Shown here piece after piece: positions 5,106-43,538 of a DNA stretch of 44,400 bases; position 1 is the stretch's first letter, and every line of letters begins with the position of its first letter. Source of the DNA: Enterococcus phage fHoEfm07. Location: sequence record PV296021.1; one strand, written 5' to 3'. The position numbers were made by a program, and so were the translations under genes. The notes beneath the pieces are model-generated. The model saw only the letters and a list, made by a program, of their open reading frames with translations, was not told where the DNA came from and did no database searches.

Positions 5106-5119
5106 GTTACATGTGAAAC
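5106..5119 (+). promoter_or_regulatory. Inverted-repeat element GTTACAtgTGAAAC (copy A), between the promoter and the RBS
   Basis: ttGTTACATGTGAAACAtAAGGAGGGGaaagaaATG. Same arms, opposite centre orientation, as copies at 11136, 36092 and 43525. Confidence 0.4.
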
Positions 5120-5136
5120 ATAAGGAGGGGAAAGAA

Positions 5137-5487
5137 ATGGTGCTAAGAAGAGAAAGAGGGATCAGAATGCCAGTGCCGGACAAATACGACAAACGTCCGC
5201 CGGTTTGCAAAGATATGTTCGGCTTTACAATACCAGCAGATCGTAAGCCACCACAACCACCAGAACCAGTGAAAACACAAATAAAGATCGATTTTGAAGG
5301 CCAGATGTTTGATTGCGATGTAATTGACGGAGTGGCCAAGATACCAGATAAAATCGTGCAGAAAATGAAGAAAACTAACCAAAAATACGAAAAAACAACA
5401 GAAATAACAATCAAAACCGGATATGACAAGCAAAACGAAGACATTTCTGCTAAAATTCTAGTGAAGACGAAAGGAGGTGGAGAATAA
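5137..5487 (+). CDS. Hypothetical protein (117 aa), Pro/Lys-rich, with its own promoter inside the head module
   Basis: Strong RBS AAGGAGGGG 7 nt upstream of the ATG (Met51 of the longer tracked ORF 4987..5487). Preceded by about 430 bp of non-coding DNA. Confidence 0.45.
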   Translation: MVLRRERGIRMPVPDKYDKRPPVCKDMFGFTIPADRKPPQPPEPVKTQIKIDFEGQMFDCDVIDGVAKIPDKIVQKMKKTNQKYEKTTEITIKTGYDKQNEDISAKILVKTKGGGE

Positions 5488-6624
5488 ATGAATTTATACG
5501 AAAGACAAATGGCGGTTCAAACAGCATCCGGAAACGTGGAGCAATACATGGATCGCATTAATCAAATGTCACATGTGCAATTAAGCGCAGAAGATGTGTT
5601 CGTGTATCAAGGTATTATCTCATCAGATGCGATGGATAGTTACTACACAAAAATGGATGCAGAAACTTCCTTGCGAAACTATGCCAACGATTTGAAAGCA
5701 GGCACGCCATTAATGACGTATCACGAAACATCACAGTCACCGATCGGCCGATCCTTTGATTCATCAATTGATGTCAAAGAGGATGGGAAAACAGTTGTTC
5801 GGGGATTGTTTTACATCGTTCGTCATACGAAAATCAATGGAGAAAGCACAGATGATCTTATCCGCCAGATCGAAACAGGAACATTGACAGAAATGTCAGT
5901 GGGATTTGGTGGGATAAATTTATGGTATAAGTCGAGTTACGATGGCAAAGATATCTTTGAATCACGCTACTATCCAGGAGATAAAGACGAAAACGGCAAT
6001 TTAGTGTATTATTACATTATGGATGCGACATTGCGAGAAGTATCTCTCGTTTACAAGGGAGCTTGTCCGGATGCCGTAGTCGAACGAATCAGAAACGATT
6101 TGCCGAATATGGAGGATGCCGAAAGACAAATCCAGAAATATGAAACACGTTTCAACGTTCGGATCGATATGCCAAAACAGCGAAGCAAGGAGGGAAAACG
6201 GATGAACATTGAAGAAATCACAAGAGCAGTAGAAAAAGGCGATTTGCAACGTGGCGAATTGCTGAAAGCATTGAAAGTCGATGCGATCACAGACGGTCAA
6301 CGTTCGATCCTTAAGGAGTTGGGCGAAGATGCAAGCATCGAAACCGTTCGATCACTGAAAGAAAAAGCAGAGATCGGAAAACGAGCATTCGAAGAAAAAT
6401 TGGATGAGTTAGTGAAAGCACGTGTTGCGATCGGTCAAGAGTTCGATCAAGAAAAATACAAAGAACAAATGCGATCAATGGATGTCGATTTCATCGAAGA
6501 TCAAACACGATTATTCGAAGATATCAAGAAAGCAGAGTTCAAACCAGGCCGACAAACACAAAAACAAAATGACGAAGACGGCAAAGCTATTTTCGTAAGT
6601 GAATCATACAAGGGGGAGAAATAA
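5488..6624 (+). CDS. Prohead serine protease (HK97 gp4 / peptidase S78-like) fused to a C-terminal scaffold-like coiled-coil domain
   Basis: N-terminal half carries His and Ser motifs (LMTYHETS; TEMSVGFGG) resembling the S78 catalytic dyad context as I recall it. C-terminal ~150 aa is highly charged with E/K/R heptad-like sequence typical of scaffolding proteins. Position just before the capsid gene. Confidence 0.55.
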   Translation: MNLYERQMAVQTASGNVEQYMDRINQMSHVQLSAEDVFVYQGIISSDAMDSYYTKMDAETSLRNYANDLKAGTPLMTYHETSQSPIGRSFDSSIDVKEDGKTVVRGLFYIVRHTKINGESTDDLIRQIETGTLTEMSVGFGGINLWYKSSYDGKDIFESRYYPGDKDENGNLVYYYIMDATLREVSLVYKGACPDAVVERIRNDLPNMEDAERQIQKYETRFNVRIDMPKQRSKEGKRMNIEEITRAVEKGDLQRGELLKALKVDAITDGQRSILKELGEDASIETVRSLKEKAEIGKRAFEEKLDELVKARVAIGQEFDQEKYKEQMRSMDVDFIEDQTRLFEDIKKAEFKPGRQTQKQNDEDGKAIFVSESYKGEK

Positions 6625-6625
6625 A

Positions 6626-7033
6626 ATGGCAAAAAGAACGCAAGTTTTAACACCAACAAACGGCATCAATCTAACCGTATATCCTAAAGCCGGCCAAGTA
6701 ATCAAACCTGGCGATGCTTTAGTATTAGATACAACGGATGCGCTAGGTTATGGCGTTAAGTTAGCAGGAGCAAACGAAGCGCCTTTATTCGTTGCTATGA
6801 TCGGCAATGAGATCGGCGAAGCGAAAACAAAACGCAACGCAATTTCCGCAAAAGTAGTCGGAAAATACAACACTGTTTTATCATTGCCAAGCGATGATAG
6901 TGCAAACATTGGCGATTATGTATTGCCAGATGGAAACGGCGTATATGTCAAAGAAACAGTTTTAGAAGAAGGAACGCCAAAAGGATTCCTAGTTGTCTAT
7001 AAAGACAGCAAAAAAGTGGAGGTGCTATTCTAA
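6626..7033 (+). CDS. Hypothetical capsid-associated protein (possible decoration or auxiliary head protein), 135 aa
   Basis: RBS AAGGGGGAG upstream of ATG (Met10 of the tracked ORF). Lies between protease/scaffold and major capsid genes. Gly/Val-rich, beta-type composition. Confidence 0.4.
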   Translation: MAKRTQVLTPTNGINLTVYPKAGQVIKPGDALVLDTTDALGYGVKLAGANEAPLFVAMIGNEIGEAKTKRNAISAKVVGKYNTVLSLPSDDSANIGDYVLPDGNGVYVKETVLEEGTPKGFLVVYKDSKKVEVLF

Positions 7034-11098: not shown

Positions 11099-11107
11099 TG
11101 ATATAAT
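11099..11107 (+). promoter_or_regulatory. Extended -10 element TGATATAAT at the end of the major tail gene
   Basis: tttTGaTATAATgg, identical to the element at 5091. It is followed by a small hairpin GGCGAtgttatTCGCC (11114-11129). Confidence 0.3.
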
Positions 11108-11135
11108 GGTGGTGGCGATGTTATTCGCCATCACT

Positions 11136-11149
11136 GTTTCACATGAAAC
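11136..11149 (+). promoter_or_regulatory. Inverted-repeat element GTTTCAcaTGAAAC (copy B), immediately upstream of the chaperone G RBS
   Basis: TGTTTCACATGAAACAccaatcAGGAGGGAAAtcaaATG. About 35 nt nearly identical to copy C at 36092. Confidence 0.45.
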
Positions 11150-11170
11150 ACCAATCAGGAGGGAAATCAA

Positions 11171-11680
11171 ATGACAGAATTAGAAAACCAATTAAAAAGC
11201 ACAGATGTAACAACAAAACCAACTCATATCGAGTTATCAGATGGAAAAGTTATGGCAGTTCCGAAATTAGACGTTGGGAAAACGTTGGGGCTTGCACGTG
11301 TTATCGCAGGCGATGGTTTCGCATTATGGCGCAAGGCACAAGGCCTATTCACAGAAGTTGAAAAGAAAGATGATTTTGGCAATCCAATGTTAGATGATGA
11401 AGGCCAACCGGTCGTTGAAATCATCGAACCGGAAAACGAACAAATTTTCGCATTCATCGTGGAAAACGTGGGTGAAGATTTATTGCCAAAAGTATTGGGC
11501 ATTTTGTTCGGTATCAAAGCAGAAGAAGTCGAAAATATGGAGTTATACGATGCCATTGAATTGTTGACAGCTTTAATCGATGCAAACGACTTAAAGAAAA
11601 CTTTTTTAGCAGTGAAGAAACTGACGGAAAAACTAGTGTCACGTCAGGCGAACGAACCGATAGCAACGCCGGCAGATTAA
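11171..11680 (+). CDS. Tail assembly chaperone (gpG-like)
   Basis: 169 aa, acidic, between the major tail protein and tape measure genes. Contains a U_UUU_UUA slippery heptamer near its 3' end with an open -1 frame continuing downstream. Confidence 0.65.
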   Translation: MTELENQLKSTDVTTKPTHIELSDGKVMAVPKLDVGKTLGLARVIAGDGFALWRKAQGLFTEVEKKDDFGNPMLDDEGQPVVEIIEPENEQIFAFIVENVGEDLLPKVLGILFGIKAEEVENMELYDAIELLTALIDANDLKKTFLAVKKLTEKLVSRQANEPIATPAD

Positions 11681-12148: not shown

Positions 12149-15100
12149 ATGGCAGACGGAAAAAGAATCGGTGGTGCGTTTTTAGATTTTCAAGTTGACT
12201 ATTCACAGCTAAAAACGTTTCTAAGCACGATGAACAGCCTATCAGACCAGACGAACAAACAAATATCCGGAATCGGGTCAGTGATCGAATCAACGATCCA
12301 GAAAACAAAGAACTTGACGAAGGAAACGGCAAGCGGTGCGAATCAGCAAAAGAATGCCATAAGTAACATCATGACACAGTATGCAAACGCATCGAAAAAA
12401 GTCGAAGAAATGACCAACAGCATTTCTAAAACAAAGGCAACATCATCAAACGCCACAAAATCGATTCTAAGCGATTCAAAGAGCATAGCAGGAGAATCAT
12501 CCAAAACAGCTTTTAAAATGTCGCAGTCGACATCACAGGCGTTCGATTCGATGAAAAAAGACAGCCGTTCTTTGAATCAAACACTTGTGGCCGGAATGAA
12601 AGCTAATGTGCAGGAGTTTGGTCAAAGTTTCAAAAATCTAGGCTCGACATTCAGCGGAATCGCATCATCGATCATTAACACGTTCAAAAAGATTCCATCC
12701 GGGATCGCATCGATTCCGAAAACGATCGCAACACAGATGAAAAATCTAGCCGGATCGATTACATCAGGATTCGCACGTGCGAAAGATTCAGCAATCTCAC
12801 AGATAAAGAAAATACCGGATGCAGTACGATCGGCAGGTAATTCAATCAAGACAGGATTTGCAACGGCGTTCAATACAGTTGTTTCCACAGCTACAAACGT
12901 AGTCAACAAGACGAACAGAGCGATCCAGACATTGCCACAAACGATCTCACGTGCAGGCAGTGCCATCAAGAACGGATTTTCGAATGGGATCAAAGCAATT
13001 CCACAGATTGCAAGTAACGTGGCTAAGTCAGCAGGAAACGCCTTTTCATCCATCGGAACAACCGTGAAGAATGTCGCATCGGCATCCGGAAGCGCAATGA
13101 AATCATTCCTATCCAGTGGGATGCAAAATGTACTTTCGAAAGCACGTTCGGTTTTCCCTGGTGTCAAGAAACAGATTCAAGACGGCGTAGACGAACCAGC
13201 CAAAACAGCATCGCTTTCATTAGGTAAAATCGCAGGCGCTATCGGCGTGATGAAAGTCGCATCCAAAGCCTTTTCGATGATTGGATCATCGATGGAAGGT
13301 GCGATCAATCGGATTGATACACTAGCAAATGCCGATCGTGTGTTCGAAAACATGGGATTCAAGGCAGAAGAAACACAAAAGATGATGCAGGCGCTAAACA
13401 AATCAATAACCGGGCTACCTACGGCGCTGAATGATGCCGTTTCCGGCGTTCAGTTGTTAGCATCATCAACAGGGGATATAGGCAAATCACAAAAGATTTT
13501 CGAAGCGTTGAATAATGGGATTTTAGGGTTCGGCGGATCGGCTGACATGGTAAACAATGCCATCGTTCAGTTATCACAATCATTCTCAAATGGGAAAGTA
13601 GATGCCGAAACATGGAACTCAATGATCAATAGTGGATTAGGGCCAGCTTTGAACGCTGTTGCAAAACAGATGGGCAAGACGGCCGGAGAATTAAAAACAG
13701 GGCTATCCGAGGGAAGTATTTCCGTTAAAGATTTCCAAGATCGTTTGATTGAATTAAACGAAAAAGGTGGCGGAGGACTGAAATCCTTGCAACAAATCGC
13801 ACAGGATGCCACAAAAGGGATCAAGACATCCATTGCCAACTTTAAAACGTCAGTGACACGTGGTGTCGCAGAGATCATCAAGGCGTTTGACAAGTTTATC
13901 ACAGCAGTAACAGGCAAAGGCGTTGCGGATTGGATCGGCACGTTTGCATCCGGATTCGAAGCAGGATTGAAGAAAGTTGCATCCGGATTCGAAGCAGTCA
14001 CGCCATTAGCTAAGAAGCTTTATGATACGTTGAAACCATTTGCGCCAGTGATCGGCGGAGTGGTGGCCGGTTTGCTCGCAATGGGCGGAATCAACTCAGC
14101 GATCTTTGCCATTAGCAAATTATCAGGAGTATTCGCAATGTTTACGAAGGCATTGTGGGCAAATCCAATCGGGTTAGTTGTCGGCCTTATCGTAACATTA
14201 GGCGTTGTATTCTATAACACTTATAAGAAATCAGAAACATTCCGCAAGAGTGTTGATAACTTGCTGAAACCGCTGAAAAAAGTCGGAGAAATGGCACAGT
14301 TAGCAGGCAAGATGATCCAATTGTATTTATTCGGAGAATATACACAGGATAAAGGGGAACAATTCGCTAAAACACGCAAAGCGTTGGAAGAAATGTTACC
14401 AAAACAAGTGGTCGATGCATTTGTAAAACAAATTCAACGTGTGAGTGATGCAAAAGAAAAATTGACGACTATCATCAAAGCCATATCGTTATCATTCCAA
14501 GATTTAAAACCGGAAGAATATGGCGAAAAAATGAAATCTTTGCATGATTATCTCGGTCAATTCATTCCACAAGAACAATTGAATGCAATTTGGGTCAGAA
14601 TCGCTAATTTTAACAATGCGATAAACCAGTTCAAAGATATATTTAGTATTTTCTATGATGCTTTAAAAGGTAATTTTAAAGATTTTAATCAATTGTATGA
14701 GGAATACGGAGATATTTTCGATATTAGCCAACTGTTCGATATAGTGTATATTTCTCAAATATTGAATCAAGTAGGCGATACGTTTAGATCAGCGTTTACG
14801 CAGATTAAACAAGCCATTTTGACAGGTGTCACAGAAGGAGATTTCACACAGCTTTATACATTGATCCAACAAATAGCGCCAACAATTATCGGGATGCTAT
14901 TGGGCGGTATTCCACAGATTGCCATCGCAGGCGGACGGCTATTGCTTTCGATTGCTGATGGTATGGGCTTAAATATTCCACAGTTGATCACGAAGCTAAC
15001 AACTGAAATCTTGCCTAACATCGTTAACACATTGGTAACCGGAGCAATTACATTTGTGAATGTCGGTATCCAATGGATCAACAACATCATTGCCGGCATT

Positions 15101-18100
15101 AATCAATCATTGCCAACATTATTGCCGATCGCATCGGGTATCATTTCGAACCTGGTAACGTTTATCATGCAGGCATTGCCAGTGATCGTGCAAACAGGTT
15201 GGACAATCCTTTCAAACTTGATGGATGGGATCATGCAGGCGTTGCCTAACTTGATCAATATTGCCGTTCAATTGGTGGTATGGCTTGCACAGACCATCGC
15301 ACAAAACTTGCCGATAATTGTCAACAAGGGGATGGATATCGTTCTGAACTTGTTGCAAGGGATTCTCAAGAAGTTCCCTGAATGGTGGGAAATGGCAGTC
15401 AAGTTGATCATTCAATTTGGCACGAAACTAGCTGAAAACTTTCCATCAATCGTGAAAAAAGGTTGGGAATTACTGACAAAACTTGTGCAAGGGATTGGCG
15501 AAAGAATTCCGGCATTGCTTGCAATGGTCGTTCAATTTATGGGCGTTATGTTAGGCAAAATATTTGAGTATTTGCCAGACTTGATCATTCTAGGTGCGAA
15601 ATTGATCGTTGCTTTGATCAAAGGCTTGTGGGAGTTCGGAAAAGGTTTAGGCGGATTCATCAGCGGATTTTGGGATTCACTGAAAAAAGGTTTTGCTCAA
15701 ATTGATTGGGGCGAAATCGGTCGAAACGTAATCGATGGGATTGTCAAAGGGTTTACAAGAGGATTCAAGAAGGCAAAAGATGCCGTGACCGATCTTGCAG
15801 GAAACATCGGCGGATGGTTCAAAGAAAAAATGGGTATCAAGTCGCCGTCACGAGTTATGGCCAAGATTTCTCAATGGGTGCCGGCAGGGGTAGCGGTCGG
15901 AGTGGAAAAAGGTGCGCCATTAGTTGATAAAGCGATGGATGCATTAACAGCCACAATGACGAAAACTGTACAAAGCGCCGATCCAACCGTTAAAAATGAA
16001 ATCAAAGTCGAATCGAAACCGACATCGATGCCAGTAGATACGAAGCAGATCACAAACGATGGTTCGTTGAATGCATCGGCCTTTAATACCGGATTGCAAA
16101 CGATCGTTCCGCAAGTTACGAACACGATCGGCACAATGGCGAAGGCAGTTGATACAGCCTTGACGAATCAAGTGCCAGGAATGCTTTCAAGTGGTCGTGA
16201 ATGGATAACAACCATGAACAACGGAATTATTCAGACAGTACCACAGCTTACAACGAGCGTTTCGAGCATGGTCAATCAAACAAACAGCAGGATCGATGCG
16301 AACGATGCAACAATGACCAGAAACGGAACAGAATGGGGAAGAAACATTCTATCCGGGTTTAATTCGATTTATCCACAATTTATCAATCGGGTTGGGCAAT
16401 TCACAAATGATACTGTTAACCGCTTGAGATCGATCAACAACACTGTTTTATCCATTGGCAGACAATACATGCAGTTGCTTCTTAACGGAATCAATCAATT
16501 GTATGGCGCAGTTGTTTCACGTGTAACAGCGTTGGGAAATCAGATGGTTTCGTCCTTAAATTCAAAACGTGGCGGATTCTACAATGCCGGAACGTATTTG
16601 ATGAATGGGCTTATATCCGGAATAAATGCCGTGAAGGGTTCGCTTAATACGACAATGAACAGCGTTGCAAACGCGATGGTCGGAGGAATCGGAAAAGGTG
16701 TGAACGGCGTTGCCAGTGGTGTGAACTACATCATGGGTCAAGTTGAATCGAAAAAACGGATCAACAGTTGGAACGTTCCAAAATACGCAAGCGGTACTGA
16801 TGGCCATCCAGAAGATGGATTTGCAATGGTCAATGACCAACCAGGATCAACTTATCATGAGATCGTTCAACGTCCGAACGGCGAAACGTTTATCCCTAAA
16901 GCAAGAAATGCAGTGTTATGGTTAGAAAAAGGCACAAAGGTTGTCAAAGCATCCATGACAAAGCAAATCCTTAAAGCTAGAAAAAACGCCATTCCACGAT
17001 ATAAAAACGGTGTCGGGGATATCGATGTGGCAGATTTCATCGATGATGAAGATGCATTGAAACGATTTTTCCAAAGCAAAGTGAATTATTCGAAAATCAA
17101 GTCGCCATGGAATGGCATGACAAGAACAGCCGTTGACATGATCGGCCATGCATCAAATGACATGGTACAAACGGCATTGAGTGATTTCTTTAGTCACGGC
17201 AATTTTGATGGATCATTGTTTGCAGGTGGTGGAGCGTTCAACAACGTTTACACGTATCTTGTAGACGTAGCGCAAAAACTCATGACGAAGTTCCCTGGCT
17301 TAGTTCCTACATCCGGTTATCGTCCGGGCGATGCTTATTATCACGGAAAACACCAGGCAATCGATTTGGCTTATCCTGGAGTTTCAAACGATCCAAGATA
17401 TACCACGATCGCAAATTACGCTTTTGAGAAATTCAAGAATCAAATTGCTTACGTCATTACAAATGGCCGAGTGCGTGACCGCATGGGGCTATCCGGCACA
17501 GGCGCATCCGGCAAATGGGTAACATGGCCAGCACACGATCACTTTGACCATATCCATCTAAACGGAGCATTTGGCGGTGGCCAATTGCAAAGCGGTGGTG
17601 GCGGTGGCGTTGAAAAATGGCGTGGCCTAGCTATCAAAGCATTAAGAATGGAAGGACAATATTCGCCGGCCAACCTTAATGCACTATTGAATCAAATGCG
17701 GACAGAATCAAATGGCGATCCGAATGCCATCAACTTATGGGATCCGAACGCACTTAAAGGAACGCCATCAAAAGGGTTGATGCAGGTTATCGATCCAACG
17801 TTCCGAGCTTATGCACGTTCGCCGTACAATAAAAATATCTTTGATCCTATTTCGAACATCCTGGCATCGATCAGATACACGTTGAGAACGTACGGCAGTT
17901 TAATTGCCGGATGGCGTGGTGTAGGCTATGAAAACGGTGGAATGGTCACAAAAGATGGTCTTTATAGAATGGGCGAAGGCAACAAAGCTGAAATGGTACT
18001 ACCATTGACCAAACCACAAAGAGCGATGGAATTAATTATGCAAGCTATCCAATATATGGGCGGTGGCGGATTGATCAAATCGCTTTCAAATGTCGCAATT

Positions 18101-27214: not shown

Positions 27215-27376
27215 AAGCAATTCTCTTTGTGGTGTGGCATAATGAAAAGGAAAGGAGGTGGAAGCCTATGCATTACACGAACAACTCAGTCGATGAAAGA
27301 GGGAAACCGGTATAATAACAATCCGGGTTTTCCCCAATCCGGATTGTTTCATGTGGAACAATCGGAGGTGGAAAAA

Positions 27377-30311: not shown

Positions 30312-30496
30312 ACACAGCAAGAATTCGTGTACAAATGAAAATGAGAGGGGAAACAGATGAAACGATGGCGAAGCGTTTAAACGTTTCACGTGTAACATAC
30401 AACAAATTGATCAATAACAAATATGTTTCCGGAAACGCCGATGCTTATATCGAAACCATCGAAAAAATTCTTGGCATGGATCAAAATATCAGATAA
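30293..30496 (+). CDS. XRE-family HTH DNA-binding protein (Cro/Aca-like), about 67 aa
   Basis: Internal ATG (Met18 of the tracked ORF 30242) with RBS GGGGAGGAAATAGAAAA. HTH signature ETDETMAKRLNVSRVTYNKLIN. First regulator-like gene of the early region. Confidence 0.55.
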   Translation: MERKQVNTARIRVQMKMRGETDETMAKRLNVSRVTYNKLINNKYVSGNADAYIETIEKILGMDQNIR

Positions 30497-32567: not shown

Positions 32568-32590
32568 ACCATTCAAATTTGAAACATTTT

Positions 32591-34033: not shown

Positions 34034-34086
34034 TAGCAAAGGCCATCTTTCTTGAAAAAGAAATTTGGCTTTTTTAAATATTTTAC

Positions 34087-34141: not shown

Positions 34142-34150
34142 AAGGAGGGG

Positions 34151-34342
34151 ATGGACATGGCAAACAAAGTGGATCGTGTCGAGTTGGAAAAAATGCGACT
34201 AGACAGCGGAAAAGAGTGGAAAGAGGTTGCCGAAGAAGTTGGCATGACAAAGTATTATCTTTCAAGATTGATCAATGGCGGAACAGGTCAAGAAGCCGTT
34301 GATAAATGGCTGCCAAAAATCAAAAACGCTTTGAAGCGATAA
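34151..34342 (+). CDS. Small HTH DNA-binding protein (63 aa), first gene behind promoter/operator cassette 1
   Basis: KEWKEVAEEVGMTKYYLSRLINGG helix-turn-helix segment. RBS AAAGGAGGGG. Confidence 0.5.
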   Translation: MDMANKVDRVELEKMRLDSGKEWKEVAEEVGMTKYYLSRLINGGTGQEAVDKWLPKIKNALKR

Positions 34343-34443
34343 AATCGTTTCTAAGACGTTTTGAAGCCTTTTGGGGTAATCATCCATGAAACGGATTAAA
34401 ACGCCGGAAACAAAAAAAGAAGTGGGAGAGGGAACGAAATAGC

Positions 34444-35205: not shown

Positions 35206-35211
35206 TACCTG

Positions 35212-36090: not shown

Positions 36091-36091
36091 T

Positions 36092-36105
36092 GTTTCACAT
36101 GAAAC
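36092..36105 (+). promoter_or_regulatory. Inverted-repeat element GTTTCAcaTGAAAC (copy C), immediately upstream of the RBS of the 36128 gene
   Basis: TGTTTCACATGAAACcaaaaatcGGAGGGAAAattttATG. Near-identical to copy B over about 35 nt. Confidence 0.45.
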
Positions 36106-36127
36106 CAAAAATCGGAGGGAAAATTTT

Positions 36128-36565
36128 ATGAAATTAGTTATCAACAGCGAAAATTTGAAAGTATCGATCGAAGCAAAAGGAAATTTGGATGAACGTCATG
36201 TGATTTCAGCGTATCAGTTAGCAACAGGAGATTTCAAAGCTTTATTTGTGGAAGAAGAGCCAAAAACAGAAACAGTCAATTTAGATATCATAGAACTTGG
36301 AAAAAGGGTTTCCGGGGATATTTTACCAACAGTAGACAAAAAGCCTTTTGATCCAAGAGAAGCTGAATGGGTACAAACAGAATACATTTGTCCGGCGTGT
36401 GGGATGGAAGGGAGAAGAAACACGATAAAAACAAACAAATATGTCAAATGCTATGAATGCAATACGAAAATCAAACTAGAAAGAGCCGTGCCAGAAAACG
36501 AAGAAAAAGAAACAGACAAAGCAGGAAATTATTTCATCGCAAATGATTTCTTTGAAATTCAATAA
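36128..36565 (+). CDS. Hypothetical protein with C-terminal C4 zinc ribbon (CPACG...CYECN)
   Basis: Internal ATG (Met24 of the tracked ORF 36059) with RBS GGAGGGAAAA. CxxC-x17-CxxC. Confidence 0.45.
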   Translation: MKLVINSENLKVSIEAKGNLDERHVISAYQLATGDFKALFVEEEPKTETVNLDIIELGKRVSGDILPTVDKKPFDPREAEWVQTEYICPACGMEGRRNTIKTNKYVKCYECNTKIKLERAVPENEEKETDKAGNYFIANDFFEIQ

Positions 36566-36591
36566 ATAATCGGATGAAAGGTGGAAAAAAC

Positions 36592-36768
36592 ATGTGTAAA
36601 GTATGCAAAGGGGAAAAAGTGGTGGTTGTTAACGTTGGCGGAGGGATTGCATCTTTTCAACCTTGCCTAAAATGCAATAAACCAGAATACAACGAACGCC
36701 ACAAAGAAACATGGGCGGATTTGGAGCGCATTTTAAACGTGTGCGATCCTAATACTAAAATCGATTAA
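36592..36768 (+). CDS. Small CxxC...CxxC zinc-finger protein (58 aa)
   Basis: RBS AAAGGTGGAAAAAAC upstream of the ATG (Met7 of the tracked ORF). MCKVCKGEK...CLKCNKPE. Confidence 0.4.
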   Translation: MCKVCKGEKVVVVNVGGGIASFQPCLKCNKPEYNERHKETWADLERILNVCDPNTKID

Positions 36769-36775
36769 ATATATA

Positions 36776-36793
36776 GGCGTTGCTTAAAACGCC
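36776..36793 (+). terminator. Small hairpin GGCGTTgcttaaAACGCC after the zinc-finger gene (weak terminator candidate)
   Basis: Perfect 6-bp stem. Followed by ttaaaacgaaaaatag rather than a clean T-tract. Confidence 0.3.
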
Positions 36794-36832
36794 TTAAAAC
36801 GAAAAATAGAGGCTAATTCGGAGGGATAGGAA

Positions 36833-37315
36833 ATGACAAAAAAGGAGTTTCATCGTTTACGATCGATTTATCTTGCAATGTATGATCGAACCAAAAGCGC
36901 ATTTTGGTTCGATAAAGTCAAAGAACTAACAAGAAAGTATGAAGAAGAAAATGACTATCGGCGGTTTGATGGTTATATAAAAATCCATTATCCGGACGGA
37001 TCGGAATATTTGTATCGCAATTTGGATCGTGCAGGCGATCAATTCAAATTATCGGGATTGAAAATGTTTGACATGGCAAGAGCAGGCAAGAAGTTAAACG
37101 ATGGAACATTTTTCACGTTGGAAGAAATACCGAAGAAAAATCGGTTTGGCGTAACATTTGAATATCCGAACGGATGCATCAAGGAGTTTTTATCGGTCGC
37201 AAGCGCAAGCAAATCAATCGGATTTTCGATCGATACAATTTCCAGATATAAGAATTCAGATAAGTTGTTGCTAGGGGAAATCAAGATCACAACGCTTCTG
37301 CATGAAGAATTATAA
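36833..37315 (+). CDS. Putative DNA-binding protein with C-terminal NUMOD1-like HTH; possibly a degenerate GIY-YIG-type homing-endonuclease relative
   Basis: C-terminal FLSVASASKSIGFSIDTISRYKN fits the F.S..EAA..LG.S...IS pattern of homing-endonuclease DNA-binding modules. N-terminal GYIKIHYPDGSEYLYRN...TLEEIPKKN loosely recalls the GIY-YIG core and the I-TevI LEEIP helix. Confidence 0.3.
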   Translation: MTKKEFHRLRSIYLAMYDRTKSAFWFDKVKELTRKYEEENDYRRFDGYIKIHYPDGSEYLYRNLDRAGDQFKLSGLKMFDMARAGKKLNDGTFFTLEEIPKKNRFGVTFEYPNGCIKEFLSVASASKSIGFSIDTISRYKNSDKLLLGEIKITTLLHEEL

Positions 37316-37332
37316 AAAAGTTTTATTTTTTA

Positions 37333-37389
37333 TTGTACAATCAGTTGCACAATGATATAATACATTTGTAAGGACAACTAGTTGCATAA
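37333..37389 (+). promoter_or_regulatory. Promoter/operator cassette copy 2: TTGTAC-17-TGaTATAAT with TTGYRCAA palindromes
   Basis: TTGTACAAtcagTTGCACAATGATATAATacatTTGTAAGGACAActagTTGCATAAcaaaaAGGGAAAGAGGTGG. Paralogous to 34087-34141. Confidence 0.55.
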
Positions 37390-37411
37390 CAAAAAGGGAA
37401 AGAGGTGGAAA

Positions 37412-37597
37412 ATGATGTGGGCAATCGGATTTTTCGTTTTCGCATTCATCACGTTGGCTTTGCTATATAACGAATGGCAAAATGAGAAAGAAGCGAAATT
37501 GGAAGCTTTGAAAAAAATCGAGGATTTGGAAAAACAAGTGCGAGTTTTAGAAGAAGTCGCAAGCATCACGAAAGAAGATGGAGGGATGGAGTTTTGA
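37412..37597 (+). CDS. Small membrane protein (N-terminal TM plus short coiled coil), about 61 aa
   Basis: ATG (Met11 of the tracked ORF) after RBS AGAGGTGGAAA. MMWAIGFFVFAFITLALLY hydrophobic segment. Confidence 0.4.
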   Translation: MMWAIGFFVFAFITLALLYNEWQNEKEAKLEALKKIEDLEKQVRVLEEVASITKEDGGMEF

Positions 37598-38100
37598 AAA
37601 AGTGGTCGGAGTTTGAAAGAGAAATAGAGCAAACAAATGCATACTATCAAAGAAAAGGCCGTGGAGCGGTGGCGAAATTGCCGAATGGTGTGCAAACAGT
37701 CAAACAAGCAGGCACGATCAAAAATTTCCGGGTAAAAACGCCGTGTGATTTCATCGGACACGTTGACGGCGTTCCGGTGGCTTTCGATGTTAAAACGACA
37801 TCAAGAAAGACCGCATTTCCAATTTTCACGAGAGGAAAGAACAACAAAGAAACATACTCACTTAAGAAGCATCAAGCGATGTTTCTATCGCAGTTCGACA
37901 ACGGCGGAAGAGGTTATGTGCTAATCTATTCAATTCCGAAAGATATATCGTGGCTTGTGCCGATCGAAGAATATTTGATGCTTAGCCAGGCAATGAAGAA
38001 CAGTGGTAAGAAAAGCATTAATTTCATCCATTTTATCGGATATGAAATCGAAAGAAAAGGCATGTTTTGGGATTATGCCGAAAAAATTTTCGGAGGTTAA
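37594..38100 (+). CDS. recU: RecU-like Holliday junction resolvase
   Basis: EREIEQTNAYYQRKGRGAVAKLP ... VAFDVKTTSRKTAFPI resemble the B. subtilis RecU motifs LEKDINQTNDYYR and YIDFEAKETKNKTSFPL as I recall them. Confidence 0.65.
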   Translation: MKKWSEFEREIEQTNAYYQRKGRGAVAKLPNGVQTVKQAGTIKNFRVKTPCDFIGHVDGVPVAFDVKTTSRKTAFPIFTRGKNNKETYSLKKHQAMFLSQFDNGGRGYVLIYSIPKDISWLVPIEEYLMLSQAMKNSGKKSINFIHFIGYEIERKGMFWDYAEKIFGG

Positions 38101-38101
38101 A

Positions 38102-38281
38102 ATGATGTATATTATAGGGTTCATAATCAAAATGATTCTTGCGATCATCGTGATTGCTTTCGTTGGTTTTGGCATTTTGTGGATATTGTTTCCAGAAAAT
38201 CCGCTTGTTGTTTGGGTCGTTGCAATTGCTTTGCCGGTTATCATTTGGCAAGGGTACAAAGAATTGGAGGAAAATCGATGA
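38102..38281 (+). CDS. Small 2-TM membrane protein (59 aa)
   Basis: ATG (Met34 of the tracked ORF 38003) right after the RecU stop, with RBS GGAGG. Two hydrophobic helices. Confidence 0.4.
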   Translation: MMYIIGFIIKMILAIIVIAFVGFGILWILFPENPLVVWVVAIALPVIIWQGYKELEENR

Positions 38282-38604
38282 TCGATGCAAACGAAGTGGA
38301 AAAGATTATCGGCGTTCAGCTTGATGATTGGCAAAAAGAAATGATCGACAATTCTAATTCGATCAATTTCAATGCAAGTCGGAGAAGGTCGGGGCGTGGA
38401 CTTGTGATGATCATTAAATTTTTATTACAGGTTGGCCATCCATATTCCTTGCCTAAAAAATCAATGTTATTAGATAAAAATAAAGTTTATGCAATCAATT
38501 ATTTTGAAATGATGGTTGATTGCTATGAAAAACTAAAAGCGGAAGGCATTCCGGTTCGCACGCTTAAAAACACGGAAGAATATGAAAGAGAGGGAAACAA
38601 GTGA
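38278..38604 (+). CDS. Hypothetical protein (108 aa)
   Basis: ATG (Met34 of the tracked ORF 38179) preceded by GGAGGAAAATCG. Overlaps the upstream stop. Confidence 0.4.
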   Translation: MIDANEVEKIIGVQLDDWQKEMIDNSNSINFNASRRRSGRGLVMIIKFLLQVGHPYSLPKKSMLLDKNKVYAINYFEMMVDCYEKLKAEGIPVRTLKNTEEYEREGNK

Positions 38605-38921
38605 TCTGTATAGGCGCAAAACAACCAGGAGGGAACGCACAACCTATTCCGATCAGTGCCAGGCCTATTGATATGATCGACTTGCTGAAACGGCTAAAAC
38701 GAGCTTACACGCAATTTCAGCAAGTATCAGAATATATCTACGTTAACGGACTGACATTGATCGATGTAGAACTCGAAACGGAATTTGATCGGCCAATATT
38801 CATTTGTAGGAACTTAAATGGCAAACTATTGTATCTGTTTCACGATGGTTGTATCAAAAGTGTTCGGAATAAAAACGGTAACATGGAAATCGAAGAAAAT
38901 CATTTGTGGGATTGGAGGTAA
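38601..38921 (+). CDS. Hypothetical protein (106 aa)
   Basis: GTG start overlapping the upstream stop (GTGA). Confidence 0.35.
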   Translation: MICIGAKQPGGNAQPIPISARPIDMIDLLKRLKRAYTQFQQVSEYIYVNGLTLIDVELETEFDRPIFICRNLNGKLLYLFHDGCIKSVRNKNGNMEIEENHLWDWR

Positions 38922-38925
38922 AGAA

Positions 38926-39132
38926 TTGATATTTGTTAGCTATTTGATTCTTGTTTCGTTGGTCAGCGGTTTGGGGATTTTTACAATCAGCACATTTTTC
39001 CGCCAGGCATTCAATCACGATCAAGAAATTGATAATTTTAATGCAATATTTTGGTTTGGCATCGCAATTGTTTTGACCGTTGTCATATTGGCTTGCCTGG
39101 TATTCATCGGATTGGAGTTGAAACAGATATGA
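38926..39132 (+). CDS. Small 2-TM membrane protein (68 aa)
   Basis: TTG start 7 nt after GGAGG (codon 37 of the tracked ORF 38818). Two hydrophobic helices. Confidence 0.35.
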   Translation: MIFVSYLILVSLVSGLGIFTISTFFRQAFNHDQEIDNFNAIFWFGIAIVLTVVILACLVFIGLELKQI

Positions 39133-39452
39133 AAAAGCACGTGTTGGAAATCGTAGTCAAAAAGAAAAATGTGATCTTGAGGAAAACGGTCAAACATGCA
39201 GGATCAGAACAGATCGCAAGAGATGTGTTTCACGTGGAACATGAACGACTAAGAAAAATGCAAGTCGAACAAGACGTGAAAGAAATCCAAAAAGCGCAAC
39301 GGCGTGGCTTTTATGATGTTTATCTAAGATATATCAAGATGAACCAAAAAACGAACGGCTTGCAGGTGTCGGAAAGCTTTATGGAAGAACATTTCACTTT
39401 TGCCAACGATCAAAAATTCGGGAGGGTCGATGATGTTAGCAAAGCAAAATGA
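39129..39452 (+). CDS. Hypothetical basic protein (107 aa)
   Basis: ATGA overlap with the upstream gene (Met27 of the tracked ORF 39051). Confidence 0.4.
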   Translation: MKKHVLEIVVKKKNVILRKTVKHAGSEQIARDVFHVEHERLRKMQVEQDVKEIQKAQRRGFYDVYLRYIKMNQKTNGLQVSESFMEEHFTFANDQKFGRVDDVSKAK

Positions 39453-39536
39453 TCCGGATATTTTCAAAAGAGCAAGATGCGGAGTTTGTAAAAGCAGAGC
39501 GGCGAACGAATATTATACGAAAGAGGTATTTGGAAA

Positions 39537-40169
39537 ATGGAAATAATTACAAGAGAAGAATTCACAGTCAAAATCAAAAAAATGTTAGAAATGCAAGATG
39601 CACTTGATCAAGCAATACTCAAAGAAAAGGCGCTAGGCCTAACGAAAGATGATTTGTTTGCCTTAACTAAAACGGCGCTTATTGTCGAGGTGTCAGAAGC
39701 GACAAACGTTGCAGAATATTTCAAGCATTGGAAAGATCATCGAGGGAACAAAGCAGATGTAGGAAAGACACACGAAGAAACGTTGTGCGAAGAATTTTCA
39801 GATGCATTTCATTTTCTGTTATCACTTATCAATCAAAAGGGATCGTTTAAACATGTCGATGCGTATTTAGATAAATACATCGAAGAATGGTTCGATGAGA
39901 ATGTATTTAATTCAAAAACAGGATATTTAGAATATTTCGAAACCATGTACGATTTGAATTTCAATGGATCATCGACAGCGCTGTTTTTCACTATTTTAAA
40001 CGGCGAGTTATCAAATTTATTTTTGACATCGACATCATCCGAATATATAAATACGCTTTTTAATTTCCTGGCATATGCAAGGGTTTGTGGCGTAACATTC
40101 AACGATTTATACGAAGCTTATATGATCAAAAATAAGATCAATTATGAGCGACTAGAATCGGGGTATTGA
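39537..40169 (+). CDS. dut: Dimeric dUTPase (phi11-type, all-alpha NTP pyrophosphatase fold)
   Basis: FKHWKDHRGNKADVGKTHEETLCEEFSDAFHFLLSLINQKGSF and C-terminal LYEAYMIKNKINYERLESGY parallel the Staph phage dimeric Dut segments FKNWKKKPGK...ELADMLAFGLSIANQQGF and LIDAYKKKMKRNHERQDG as I recall them. Confidence 0.55.
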   Translation: MEIITREEFTVKIKKMLEMQDALDQAILKEKALGLTKDDLFALTKTALIVEVSEATNVAEYFKHWKDHRGNKADVGKTHEETLCEEFSDAFHFLLSLINQKGSFKHVDAYLDKYIEEWFDENVFNSKTGYLEYFETMYDLNFNGSSTALFFTILNGELSNLFLTSTSSEYINTLFNFLAYARVCGVTFNDLYEAYMIKNKINYERLESGY

Positions 40170-40355
40170 TCGATGCAACCAGTATATATTTTGTGGGCGG
40201 TATTTATCGCAATTTTTATCGGTGTAATTATTTTCAAAGATGACGAAGGAGATTAGAAATGGGAAAACGTGGCAAACGAATCAAAAAGAAAAACAGAAAA
40301 CGGAAAGAATCACGTGAAATCAACGAACAAAAAACAAAGAAAGTGAGTGATCAAA

Positions 40356-40664
40356 ATGGCGTTAGTGGAGTACACAGCAACAAAAGTCGTTTGTGATATT
40401 TGTGGAGCAGATGCAAATGGATCATGGTTTCGCAGGGAAGAAGTGAACGGCATTACAAATCGGCTGTTTATCATTCCAATCGATTTATGTGACACACATT
40501 CGAAGATGTATGACGAAGACGAAGCATTCAAAAAGTACGTTGTATTGGAAAGCGAGAAAAACAATTATCCACAGGAAAAGAAAGATGAATTGATCCAGGC
40601 GATGAAACAAAAATGGGAGGGTATGGAAGAATGGCAACAAGATCAAATGAAGAACAACAATTGA
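40356..40664 (+). CDS. Hypothetical protein with an N-terminal CxxC motif (102 aa)
   Basis: Internal ATG of the tracked ORF 40347. Weak RBS. Confidence 0.35.
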   Translation: MALVEYTATKVVCDICGADANGSWFRREEVNGITNRLFIIPIDLCDTHSKMYDEDEAFKKYVVLESEKNNYPQEKKDELIQAMKQKWEGMEEWQQDQMKNNN

Positions 40665-40879
40665 TCGCAGAAATCAAAGCAAATTACACAGGATTTGTGA
40701 ATAACTCTTTTATCGGAAACATAAGCACAAGCGGACATCCCAGGATTTTGGATGGTTTATTGGTCAATTTGATCGCAGACATCATCAACCGCAAAGAAAC
40801 GGACGAAGAGCGCCACAATCTTTGCTATCAGATTGACCAGGTTATTTCAGATCACTTGAAGCAGGAGGAAGATCGATGA
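40631..40879 (+). CDS. Hypothetical protein (about 82 aa)
   Basis: ATG (Met7 of the tracked ORF 40613) 10 nt after GGGAGGG. Overlaps the downstream start (ATGA). Confidence 0.35.
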   Translation: MATRSNEEQQLIAEIKANYTGFVNNSFIGNISTSGHPRILDGLLVNLIADIINRKETDEERHNLCYQIDQVISDHLKQEEDR

Positions 40880-41127
40880 AATATCGGGTTGGGGATAGGT
40901 TCATGGCAAGAGTGAAAGGAGAGTTCCTTATTCGTGAGGTGGTCGCAGTCGATTGCGATCATCCTCATGGATATCACTATAAAACGATGGCCAACGATTC
41001 AAAACCGTTTTGGCAAACAGAAAAGCAGTTGGATAAATATGTTCACGTTGGAAATGTCTTTCGGATAGAACGTTCTTACGAAATATACAAAGCAACACAA
41101 GAAAAAAGGTGTGAAAAGGGGTTATAG
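40876..41127 (+). CDS. Hypothetical protein (83 aa)
   Basis: Coupled ATGA start. RBS GGAGGAAGA. Confidence 0.4.
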   Translation: MKYRVGDRFMARVKGEFLIREVVAVDCDHPHGYHYKTMANDSKPFWQTEKQLDKYVHVGNVFRIERSYEIYKATQEKRCEKGL

Positions 41128-41128
41128 T

Positions 41129-41332
41129 ATGGAAATGTATCGTATCACTTACAAGCAAAAATTTGCCGGGAAAGTATTAGAAGATTCATATATAAAACGT
41201 GTTAGAAGTTACGAAGAAATCGACATGGCCATTGAAGCGTTATATGATGATCCTTGCGTTTTTGCAGTGGAAGCGATCCGGATCAATTCGACAGACGAAG
41301 CAGGCGGAGGGAATGGGAATGAATCAATTTAG
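41129..41332 (+). CDS. Hypothetical protein (67 aa)
   Basis: ATG (Met7 of the tracked ORF 41111) after AAAAGGGG. Confidence 0.35.
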   Translation: MEMYRITYKQKFAGKVLEDSYIKRVRSYEEIDMAIEALYDDPCVFAVEAIRINSTDEAGGGNGNESI

Positions 41333-41513
41333 CGCAGGCGATCGGATCATTTGCAAATATTCGGATGTTACTGATTGGATTTATAAAGTCGAGAAATTTG
41401 AAAAGAAGGATCGCAATGGCGTGTATCATTTACTTTCGCCATCCGGTGTGAATTTTGAATGTCAGCAATTGAACGTGGAAGATGTTTGCGAATTGTATGA
41501 GAAAGGACGTTAA
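41313..41513 (+). CDS. Hypothetical protein (about 66 aa)
   Basis: ATG after GGCGGAGGGAATGGGAATG (Met39 of the tracked ORF 41199). Confidence 0.35.
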   Translation: MGMNQFSAGDRIICKYSDVTDWIYKVEKFEKKDRNGVYHLLSPSGVNFECQQLNVEDVCELYEKGR

Positions 41514-41677
41514 CAAATGACAGAAATCGAATGGGCGTTGTTTATCGTAGCATTATTTTTCGGCAATATCTCATTTCGTGATAGACAAGGCGTGCCACGA
41601 TTTGAATATAGCGGATTGGTTGCATATCTAATCAAAAAGGCTTTTGAAGCTATAAAAGCGATGAAAGAGGATGATCG

Positions 41678-42175
41678 ATGATGGAAAAAAGACAATATAT
41701 GTGTGCTTTAAACGCAGATCAAGAAGTTTGGGAAGCAACAGAGCGTTTCAATACAAGGATCGAAGCGATTAATGCAGGCATTCAAGGTTTGGCAGAAAAA
41801 GACGAAGACATTTTCGGAGAAATCCCAGAAATAGGAACGACAAAATTCGCAGTTGGCAGAATAAGTGAATACAAAATCAATTTTGAAAACGTGGCAGAAG
41901 AGATCATGGAGATCATAAGCGAAGATGCCTATGATTATCTAGGGGAATCGGCAACGAACTATCTTGAAGACGTTGAGGACGATCAAAAGAAAAGACTTGC
42001 AGGTGTGATCGAAAAATTTTTCAAGGAAGAAGAATTGATGCCAAAATGTTTCAACATCGTTGACATTGAAGAATATGACATCACGGACTTATTCGGATCA
42101 TACGTAAAAAACAATACATTTCCGGATTTCACTAAGAAAGAATGGAGAAGCGGATTTGATGCAGGGATGGCTTAA
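41678..42175 (+). CDS. Highly acidic hypothetical protein (165 aa); DNA-mimic / anti-restriction candidate
   Basis: Roughly 45 Asp+Glu against about 20 Lys+Arg by eye. No TM segment and no catalytic motif. Lies in the early region. Confidence 0.4.
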   Translation: MMEKRQYMCALNADQEVWEATERFNTRIEAINAGIQGLAEKDEDIFGEIPEIGTTKFAVGRISEYKINFENVAEEIMEIISEDAYDYLGESATNYLEDVEDDQKKRLAGVIEKFFKEEELMPKCFNIVDIEEYDITDLFGSYVKNNTFPDFTKKEWRSGFDAGMA

Positions 42176-42638
42176 AGAATACCGAATGAAACAAGCAAAC
42201 GAGTTGATCCGAATGATTGCAAATCGTGGTCGGCGTTTCTTTGATTATACGACAGTTAAGAGAATGGATAACGAAGCACTTTTGGGGAGCGTGTCGCATT
42301 TCATTATCAAAAACAACCGTGTCTATTTCAAGGATGGTTATACACAAAAAGAAATGTTTGCTTATAACCATCTTTACATGAAAGAATTTACGCCAGGCGG
42401 AACGCTCGAAGCACTTGTGTTGGATTTGTCGGAGTTCATTCGAACAGGCGAACCAACTAACGGCAATAATGGATATGGCGGTGTATATGCGCCAACAGAA
42501 CATTGGGGCTATTCGATCGAAGAAATGGAAGAGATCAGAGCGTATGCAAAGGAAATCGGATTTGCTAAGGGGGAACGAAATGGAAGGGTTGAATTTGAAA
42601 ACGTTCGTTGTGGTCAACGGCAATCAATACATGGTTAG
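42156..42638 (+). CDS. Hypothetical protein (160 aa)
   Basis: Overlaps the upstream gene by 20 nt. No recognisable motif. Confidence 0.4.
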   Translation: MMQGWLKEYRMKQANELIRMIANRGRRFFDYTTVKRMDNEALLGSVSHFIIKNNRVYFKDGYTQKEMFAYNHLYMKEFTPGGTLEALVLDLSEFIRTGEPTNGNNGYGGVYAPTEHWGYSIEEMEEIRAYAKEIGFAKGERNGRVEFENVRCGQRQSIHG

Positions 42639-42810
42639 CACCGTTTATGTTTATGTTTTGGGATGGGAAACAATGGTTTTCAGAACAATCGGCGATCAAA
42701 CGGTTGTGGATTGGCAAGAAATAGATAAATATACCAGGCGTTACTTTTCCGAGGAAAAAGCAAGAGAAGGCCATCGGGAAACGATCATCGCTTTAAGGAG
42801 GGATGCTTGA
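42580..42810 (+). CDS. Hypothetical protein (about 76 aa)
   Basis: ATG (Met56 of the tracked ORF 42415) after GGGGGAACGAA. Confidence 0.35.
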   Translation: MEGLNLKTFVVVNGNQYMVSTVYVYVLGWETMVFRTIGDQTVVDWQEIDKYTRRYFSEEKAREGHRETIIALRRDA

Positions 42811-42992
42811 TGACTGACATCGTTTTCCGGGTAGCGTGTGGCATGGCAATTGTATTGCTGACTATATACGCAAAAAAAGAATTTAAAGAAACATCAAGAA
42901 GAAATGAACAGTTTCGCAGAACAATCACAGGAAGAAGGAGCAAACAGAATGAACCAACGCCAGAAGAAAAAACAACTGAAAAAGATCGTTGA
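42807..42992 (+). CDS. Small membrane protein (61 aa)
   Basis: Hydrophobic helix ACGMAIVLLTIYA then a basic tail. ATGA coupling. Confidence 0.35.
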   Translation: MMTDIVFRVACGMAIVLLTIYAKKEFKETSRRNEQFRRTITGRRSKQNEPTPEEKTTEKDR

Positions 42993-43293
42993 TCTTATGA
43001 ATCAAATCGAAATCGATGATTATGACGGCCAGGGGAATGAATTGTTTTATGTTTTGGCCGAAGCAAACGAAAAACATCAAGCAATCCTTGAAAAAATATG
43101 CAGTATAACGAAGGCGAACAAGTTACTCGTTCACATGATGTACGAATACGAAGATATGATGGATGATTTTAGGGATTGGGTCGTACAATTCGATTTAACA
43201 GAAGTATGGATGCTTATCAAGCAATGGCCGAAAAAATATGACATGGCTTATAACTCGAAAAAAGGATTTGTGATCGTGAGGGATCAAATGTGA
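42949..43293 (+). CDS. Hypothetical protein (114 aa)
   Basis: ATG (Met16 of the tracked ORF 42904) after GGAGCAAACAGA. Overlaps the preceding small ORF. Confidence 0.35.
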   Translation: MNQRQKKKQLKKIVDLMNQIEIDDYDGQGNELFYVLAEANEKHQAILEKICSITKANKLLVHMMYEYEDMMDDFRDWVVQFDLTEVWMLIKQWPKKYDMAYNSKKGFVIVRDQM

Positions 43294-43520
43294 CAAACAA
43301 AGAGATCAAAGAAGCATTGCAACAAGAGGGGATGCCAATGTTAAGAACCATGAAAGGAAATCTAGTTTTATATCTACCAATAGGATCAACAGATCGATAT
43401 AAACCGATCGCAGAAACTTGGCACAGAAAATGGATCATCCTTGATGATATCAAGCTTTTGGAAAATAAGGCGTTTGATGTAATAAAGCTATTAAACAAAT
43501 GGGATCATAAAACTAATTAA
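43290..43520 (+). CDS. Hypothetical protein (76 aa)
   Basis: Coupled start. Last gene of this early transcription unit before a terminator. Confidence 0.4.
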   Translation: MTNKEIKEALQQEGMPMLRTMKGNLVLYLPIGSTDRYKPIAETWHRKWIILDDIKLLENKAFDVIKLLNKWDHKTN

Positions 43521-43524
43521 TGAT

Positions 43525-43538
43525 GTTTCACATGGAAC
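43525..43538 (+). promoter_or_regulatory. Inverted-repeat element GTTTCAcaTGGAAC (copy D, one mismatch), 5 nt after the stop of the 43290 gene
   Basis: aTGTTTCACATGGAACAttagtgtataatg. A TATAAT-like hexamer follows. Confidence 0.35.

Follow-up and report, generated by a model that had tools for sequence, protein, structure and literature searches.

Phage fHoEfm07 (sequence record PV296021.1) has a complete circular genome of 44.4 kb, and this whole stretch is the window analyzed here. Its genes all lie on one strand, and its ends join to complete a 206-aa gene, as in contigs with an identical terminase. Scattered through the window is a short palindrome that closely matches parS, the centromere site of bacterial chromosomes, and we describe here these sites, their placement and the proteins that might read them. 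An earlier note on this DNA had reported four copies, A to D, of a 14-bp inverted repeat and had proposed a symmetric binding site for a dimeric protein, perhaps a phage-encoded regulator, or else a hairpin or RNase signal acting in RNA next to the Shine-Dalgarno sequence (SD).

Eight copies of a parS-like palindrome

All four copies are present, with A reading GTTACATGTGAAAC (5106-5119), B (11136-11149) and C (36092-36105) both reading GTTTCACATGAAAC, and D reading GTTTCACATGGAAC (43525-43538). The count of four proved too low. At no more than one mismatch to the 14-bp pattern GTTTCANNTGAAAC, eight copies are found, the other four starting at 16514, 27346, 30383 and 39227, versus 0.28 expected, and none of 100 shuffled sequences reached eight. 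As every copy is flanked by t...a, the unit is 16 bp long (Table 1). All eight units lie within two mismatches of the 16-bp palindrome TGTTTCACGTGAAACA, the consensus of the universal chromosomal parS recognized by ParB (Spo0J), which takes the form TGTTNCACGTGAAACA in Bacillus. Second-order Markov simulations give a chance expectation of 0.025 per genome at up to two mismatches, and the expectation at up to three is 0.41. Chance or base composition was rejected as the source of the copies (8 observed versus 0.025-0.41 expected), and a symmetric site for a dimeric DNA-binding protein is supported.

A match to the consensus with at most two mismatches is the operational criterion for parS annotation in bacterial genomes, and by this criterion whole bacterial genomes, including E. 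faecalis, carry 1-10 parS (PMC10197239). The parS consensus of S. pneumoniae, tGTTTCACGtGAAACa, is the same 16-bp consensus (PMC4488948). The identical test applied to phage phi29 as a control returned four sites TGTTTCACGTGGAACA and one weaker site, in line with the five parS reported for that phage (PMC2731898), and site K of the window is identical to these four. No parS site was present in the Enterococcus phages phiEf11, BUCT630 and vB_EfaS_Max or in the Bacillus phage B83, the control with the closest terminase. Three temperate relatives without a ParB_N gene, at ~47% portal identity, also gave no parS site. The window shows no enrichment of Noc-binding sites or of Spo0A boxes (TGTCGAA; 9 found versus 10.8 expected).

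Table 1 parS-like sites and associated features of the window
Feature	Position	Strand	Description
Intrinsic terminator before the site-A promoter	5029..5064	+	16-pair stem and T run
Extended -10 box	5091..5099	+	TGATATAAT; 5 nt upstream of site A
Site A, parS-like	5105..5120	.	TGTTACATGTGAAACA; 2 mismatches
Extended -10 box	11099..11107	+	TGATATAAT; after the stop codon of the major-tail gene
Strong hairpin abutting site B	11108..11135	+	-19 kcal/mol
Site B, parS-like	11135..11150	.	TGTTTCACATGAAACA; 1 mismatch
Site T, parS-like	16513..16528	.	TGTTTCACGTGTAACA; 1 mismatch; within tape-measure gene 12149-18349
Site L, parS-like	27345..27360	.	TGTTTCATGTGGAACA; 2 mismatches; head of lysis cassette
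Site H, parS-like	30382..30397	.	CGTTTCACGTGTAACA; 2 mismatches; within small HTH_3 gene 30242-30496
Site C, parS-like	36091..36106	.	TGTTTCACATGAAACC; 2 mismatches
Site K, parS-like	39226..39241	.	TGTTTCACGTGGAACA; 1 mismatch; within gene 39051-39452
Site D, parS-like	43524..43539	.	TGTTTCACATGGAACA; 2 mismatches
Orphan ParB_N protein, 206 aa	43786..44400 + bases 1-6, across the circular junction	+	Pfam ParB_N

Placement and spacing of the sites

Five of the eight sites are fully intergenic, whereas only 5.7% of the genome is non-coding by our own gene calls (binomial P ~3e-5), and the positional bias is thus real. The intergenic copies stand where operons start, with a -10 box or hairpin on one side and the SD on the other, and four of them (A, B, L and C) end 2-8 nt upstream of the SD. 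The other three sites (T, H and K) are conserved within genes. Much of what the earlier note had read from its four copies holds for the larger set, namely the recurrence in structural and early regions and the location of several copies at promoter or ribosome-binding positions. We also confirmed that B and C have in common the stretch TGTTTCACATGAAAC...AATC(A)GGAGGGAAA, which runs into the ribosome-binding region, and that A and B each follow an identical TGATATAAT (5091 and 11099).

The spacing is over-dispersed. The minimum gap in the window is 3.0 kb, and the probability of a minimum gap of at least 3 kb is 0.004. In the sister contig L136 (see below), six successive sites lie 3.3 +/- 0.4 kb apart (P = 0.0006 for the coefficient of variation, with site D left out post hoc; P = 0.024 with all seven sites). 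Sister phages have a parS, GGTTTCAC(G/A)TGAAACA, at the junction of two small genes (L135 8581-8596; L136 8026-8041). The equivalent place in the window (33706-33724) holds only a decayed remnant, GGTTTGGTGTGATGAAGCA; with the remnant included, the early region regains a spacing of ~3 kb.

Conservation in sister lineages

Divergent relatives were found by protein searches of Logan/ENA contigs, while IMG/VR and INPHARED held near-identical relatives or none, and a metagenome scan with the Dit protein gave only further close relatives. Near-identical contigs retain the sites. The sister lineages have ~80% protein identity to the window (contigs L128-L131, L135 and L136) or 63-80% (L147). Sites are retained in them at A, B, L, H, C, K and D, where the flanking DNA has diverged beyond recognition. 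Their sites have drifted among parS variants, and additional sites are present, so that perfect 16/16 copies, TGTTTCACGTGAAACA and TGTTCCACGTGAAACA, occur in these phages. The latter, which is site A in L128, is the exact spo0J site of B. subtilis.

Among 27 site instances, ten positions are invariant, and variation is confined to 1/16, 5/12 and 8/9, that is, to positions that also vary among natural parS. Position 5/12 is the known degenerate (N) position of parS. The central pair 8/9 is CG, CA or TG and never TA, and one perfect half-site always remains because this pair is never altered on both halves.

The variant with a CACATG centre was found at 120 bacterial loci. A second parS-like site lies within 8 kb at 62 of these, and at 48 there is one centred on CACGTG; in some tandem arrays the variant is one unit among perfect copies. 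Judged by such sequence context, the CACATG-centred variant is a natural member of parS clusters. Single CACATG-variant sites also occur in contigs of Enterococcus larvae, Trichococcus and Streptococcus parasanguinis; these are uninformative on the host parS repertoire, because no parB gene adjoins the site within the 8-kb stretches. Dense tandem arrays of perfect parS were seen in bacterial contigs (L244 1014-1353, L182 2321-2962 and L224 311-1014), and contigs labelled viral in IMG/VR (L018, L045, L046 and L050) carry dense arrays as well, examples being eight units at 46-bp spacing and six units at ~125-bp spacing. Dense arrays of this kind may be plasmid or phage-plasmid centromeres.

Surroundings of the individual sites

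Site A coincides approximately with +1 of the head-operon promoter, and the SD of gene 5137-5487 follows it at 2-3 nt. The position of the site is occupied by TGTTCCACGTGAAACA in L128 and by TGTTACATGTGAAACA in L147, in unrelated flanks. Both contigs have a hairpin analogous to the terminator upstream, and sister lineages have TAAAAT or TATAAT 5-7 nt before the site, so the order of terminator, -10 box, site A and SD is retained in all three lineages despite unrelated sequence. Site B follows its -10 box by 27 nt and lies 6 nt upstream of the SD of gene 11171-11680, in the tail-chaperone position. In a sister lineage the -10 box reads TGTTATAAT, the hairpin has a different sequence with the structure retained (-17.2 kcal/mol), and site B itself is identical although the upstream flank differs. 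Site L is located between a conserved hairpin (27319-27346) and the SD of gene 27377-27781. Its sister counterpart is TGTTTCACATGAAAC(A/G), whose centre is CACATG in place of CATGTG.

Strong hairpins rich in GC (-14 to -19 kcal/mol) have their ends exactly on the initial base or bases of sites B and L (window 11108-11135 and 27319-27346; L128 19066-19093; L135 2243-2269). Their structure is conserved and their sequence differs, and the TGTTT of the two sites occupies the place of the U-tract that would follow a terminator hairpin.

A TATAAT promoter (43546-43551) that precedes the ParB_N-terS-terL genes has its -35/spacer region overlapped by site D, which lies ~250 bp before the ParB_N gene. 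L128 and L136 retain the site, and L129 and L147 lack it. Sites A, B and D thus stand at or near promoters of several operons, a placement conserved in the sister lineages. Weak -35 boxes at A, B and D cause a consensus promoter scanner to overlook the extended -10 promoters there, which were read instead from sequence and conservation. Between the site-D promoter and the ParB_N gene lies a non-coding stretch of ~160 nt (43580-43735) that ends in an intrinsic terminator (43705-43730) with one GC-to-CG compensatory change. In an alignment of the window with L001, L128, L129, L136 and L147 it appears more conserved than the adjoining coding DNA, as it is near-invariant across lineages with 63-80% protein identity. 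It has no Rfam match and could be a pac site or a small RNA.

Site C begins 1 nt past the stop codon of a DnaC/IstB-like gene, and 8 nt separate its end from the SD of the downstream Zn-ribbon gene (36128-36565). Three lineages have a site in this position, even with a different downstream gene. In the near-identical contig L002, an IS605-type element (885-2390; TnpB/OrfB and a small reverse open reading frame, ORF) replaces site C together with the first Zn-ribbon codons (window equivalent 36091-36140). An extra site of the sister phages, E, lies like site C between a stop codon and the next SD.

Among the intragenic sites, T is retained in the relatives L268 (98%) and L269 (86%). Site K is kept in four lineages with CAC to CAT as its sole synonymous change, while adjoining conserved codons vary at synonymous positions; these frozen codons are no more than suggestive. 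Site H has the counterparts TGTTTCACGTGTAACT and TGTTTCACGTGAAACG in sister lineages. It falls in the part of a small Cro-like gene that codes for the helix-turn-helix (HTH) and encodes N-V-S-R-V-T. In L136 (4732-4747) a non-synonymous GTA-to-GAA change, V to E, moves the DNA toward the parS consensus, which hints that the DNA site, and not the protein alone, may be under selection.

The early regions of L129 (3572-4762) and L130 (2456-3646) encode a 396-aa cytosine-5 DNA methyltransferase (PF00145) that is absent from the window and from L128.

Lifestyle and probable host of the phage

No integrase, ParA or HTH-containing ParB was found in a Pfam scan of the ORFs in 27377-43752 or in precomputed Pfam tables for the rest of the genome and for relatives. 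The phage is apparently virulent. A self-encoded ParABS system of the kind present in P1, N15 and plasmid-prophages would comprise a ParA ATPase and an HTH-ParB with a dimerisation domain, and neither is encoded here.

The host is probably Enterococcus or a close relative, as judged from two kinds of similarity. About 0.5 kb (22922-23478) of the gene for a 1951-aa tail protein has 79-85% DNA identity to tail genes of the Enterococcus phages 9183, TJE4, phiSHEF14, EF1 and BUCT630, which are otherwise unrelated; a receptor-binding module seems to have been exchanged in mosaic fashion, and the segment is the principal clue to the host. For the portal protein and the DnaC-like loader, the nearest named homologues are found in Enterococcus and Vagococcus genomes.

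An orphan ParB N-domain protein

The gene that spans the circular junction encodes a stand-alone ParB_N protein and overlaps terS (3-608). Its Pfam match covers residues 12-98 only, and PDB sequence matches to ParB and Noc are limited to the same N-domain stretch. The AlphaFold model (predicted local distance difference test score, pLDDT, 79) matches ParB, Noc and KorB in Foldseek over ~100-130 columns, again within the N-domain only, and beyond it the model has a few helices and an acidic disordered linker. No HTH domain was found in the protein by Pfam, PDB sequence search or fold search.

The closest phage relatives of the protein are the N-termini of ParB-methyltransferase fusions. Stand-alone ParB_N proteins that are 46-49% identical to it are encoded in L145 and L146. 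In these contigs (L145 10001-11292; L146 10001-11298) and in phiEf11 (L138; 40389-41505), a Mom-like DNA-modification gene comes after the ParB_N gene, and the pair is a split version of the ParB-methyltransferase fusions. The window and its sister lineages lack the Mom-like partner, and there terS comes directly after ParB_N. There is no parS in ~20 kb around the gene in L145 and L146, and none in the whole genome of phiEf11, which has an annotated ParB-like gene.

Which protein reads the sites

We consider it likely that the copies make up an array of centromere sites of the host type (chromosomal parS) and would serve as a loading array for host ParB on the phage genome. The reading draws on the parS identity, the enrichment, the regular spacing, the operon-start placement, the positional conservation in three lineages and the absence of HTH-ParB and ParA. 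The phage-encoded regulator suggested by the earlier note finds no support, as the sequence is host-type parS, with perfect 16/16 copies in sister phages, and the phage encodes no ParB with an HTH domain; the chromosomal ParB of the host appears to be the best candidate reader.

Several points count against a host-ParB array. The placement next to the SD may partly reflect short intergenic gaps, as these are the only room for a 16-bp palindrome. Five of the eight window sites have a centre mismatch (CACATG or CATGTG), which may bear on their affinity for an Enterococcus ParB. Individual sites are dispensable, because L002 has lost site C and L129 and L147 have no site D. The assignment to Enterococcaceae draws on the tail-gene DNA similarity and the nearest named homologues, and an endolysin search of species genomes for the host gave no match. 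Enterococcaceae is a non-sporulating family, and such a host likely removes the only demonstrated benefit of phage parS, spore entrapment.

The sites might instead be operators of a phage HTH protein that coincide with or mimic parS; the protein would repress or time phage operons globally and might compete with host ParB. The candidates are two small HTH_3 proteins (the Cro-like proteins at 30242-30496 and 34151-34342), site H lies within one of their genes, and site A at +1 and site D over the -35/spacer occupy classic operator positions. Such a protein would have to match every constrained position of parS by coincidence or design, and we regard this as unlikely. A chance operator match to the universal parS is very improbable given ten invariant positions, the shared degenerate 5/12 and the perfect sister copies. 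Cro/CI operators cluster at one or two control regions, and three conserved intragenic sites together with a regular array over structural genes would be atypical of them. The ParB_N protein itself has also to be considered as the reader, in a self-contained par-like or packaging-related system, since its gene lies close downstream of site D and all three lineages with the array carry it next to terS/terL. We think this very unlikely, because the protein has the N-terminal CTPase-fold domain alone and its homologues sampled in other phages reside in parS-free DNA. The acidic stretch in its C-terminal half, disordered in the model, and the fact that its closest relatives are the N-termini of methyltransferase fusions also speak against the idea, as does the pairing of the other sampled ParB_N genes with a Mom-like gene.

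The same motif could in principle act in RNA, as a short hairpin beside the SD that works as a translational operator or an RNase processing signal. The four copies just upstream of an SD would suit this, and copies L and D fold as extended hairpins (-10.8 and -7.6 kcal/mol). Copy A is unfolded (0 to -0.5 kcal/mol) despite its conservation in three lineages, and the stability of copy C is no greater than that of shuffled sequence. The would-be stem pair 5/12 is broken in 7 of the 27 instances (TT, AA or CA) without compensation, three conserved copies lie inside ORFs, the 14-nt core as a 6-bp stem would leave a loop of only 2 nt, and Rfam found no family over the whole window. We therefore hold an RNA element, which the earlier note had also put forward, to be scarcely credible.

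Proposed function of the host-type parS array

ParB elsewhere nucleates at parS, closes as a cytidine triphosphate (CTP)-dependent clamp and slides away. If the sites are read by the host protein, a dimer of host ParB (Spo0J) would nucleate on the eight of them, close as a CTP clamp and slide, and with sites every 3-6 kb ParB would be loaded over the whole phage chromosome. As one output, the phage DNA would be treated as a centromere-bearing replicon, tethered and partitioned with the host origins and offered to SMC (structural maintenance of chromosomes) condensin. This would aid persistence in dividing cells during stalled lytic growth, following the logic of phi29 without spores. A partition or SMC output of this kind is favoured by the regular spacing and by the conservation of intragenic sites.

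As another output, late units would be sensitive to ParB occupancy and damped until the replicated sites exceed the ParB supply. The copies involved would be A at +1 of the head promoter, B in the 5' leader of the tail-assembly unit, L before the lysis cassette and D in the -35/spacer of the promoter that precedes the ParB_N-terminase genes. This second output is favoured by the placement at operon starts. In S. pneumoniae the nearby comCDE is repressed by ParB at parS (PMC4488948), and KorB on plasmid RK2 represses nearby transcription (PMC11790492). Both outputs are plausible, and neither excludes the other.

We also speculate that the orphan ParB_N protein modulates host ParB by engaging its N-domain. 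A bolder proposal makes the ParB-CTP clamp of the host a genome-wide device, in which, for a virulent phage on a Gram-positive, non-sporulating host, the parS array at 3-6 kb intervals would cause the genome to be coated on entry and silence the late operons (head, tail, lysis and packaging) until ParB is titrated by replication, or would load SMC of the host on the phage DNA, while ParB_N would lock, poison or redirect the host ParB clamp. We advance this combined scheme as a doubtful one.

Relation to known systems

Host-type parS on a lytic phage are already known from the phi29 family, in which they serve a spore entrapment that depends on Spo0J (Meijer et al. 2005, as summarised in PMC2731898). 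Both phi29 and the phage studied here carry multiple host-type parS without a ParB of their own. Phi29 is a phage classed as lytic, without a ParA or HTH-ParB of its own, and shares with the window the presence of several copies of the host chromosomal parS, at a density of 4-5 sites per 19 kb versus 8 per 44 kb here. Unlike the phage of the window, phi29 infects a spore-former, and its known pay-off is forespore segregation with Spo0A boxes; the likely host family here is non-sporulating, and the combination of Spo0A boxes at promoters and a sporulating host is lacking. Three of the four strong phi29 sites are intragenic, whereas five of eight are intergenic here, at operon starts and with regular spacing. 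The orphan ParB N-domain protein is a further difference.

Plasmid RK2 resembles the window in having palindromic loading sites (OB) for a ParB-family protein scattered over a mobile element, some promoter-proximal and others distant, and its CTP-dependent sliding clamp silences transcription (PMC11790492). RK2 differs in that its KorB, which has an HTH, is self-encoded, as are KorA and TrbA, the partners that lock the clamp, and the OB sequence is not that of parS. The sites in the window are host parS, and the phage encodes no DNA-binding ParB that could serve, with a clamp-locking partner, as a repressor of the KorB/OB type. In S. pneumoniae, whose 16-bp consensus is identical, ParB recruits SMC and damps a neighbouring operon (PMC4488948), with four origin-proximal sites in 2 Mb as opposed to eight in 44 kb of phage DNA. 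Phage N15 likewise has single palindromic centromere sites (IR1-4) scattered round its genome and not clustered (PMC7205306), but it is a temperate plasmid-prophage that encodes SopA/SopB itself and whose site sequence is its own.

Full-text literature searches found no report of host-type parS in Enterococcus phages or in phages of any non-sporulating host, nor of a regularly spaced, operon-start-associated parS array, and for lytic phages in general they gave no case of host centromere sites beyond the phi29 family. An Enterococcus-type siphovirus with 8-10 conserved, regularly spaced parS at the starts of its operons suggests that the hijacking of ParB, and possibly of SMC, is more widespread among phages. 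It might serve persistence in dividing cells, the organisation of the genome or a timing of late genes coupled to copy number. The array may be relevant to enterococcal phage therapy, because carrier states affect killing, and the phage would offer a natural system in which to study the role of a stand-alone ParB N-domain protein.

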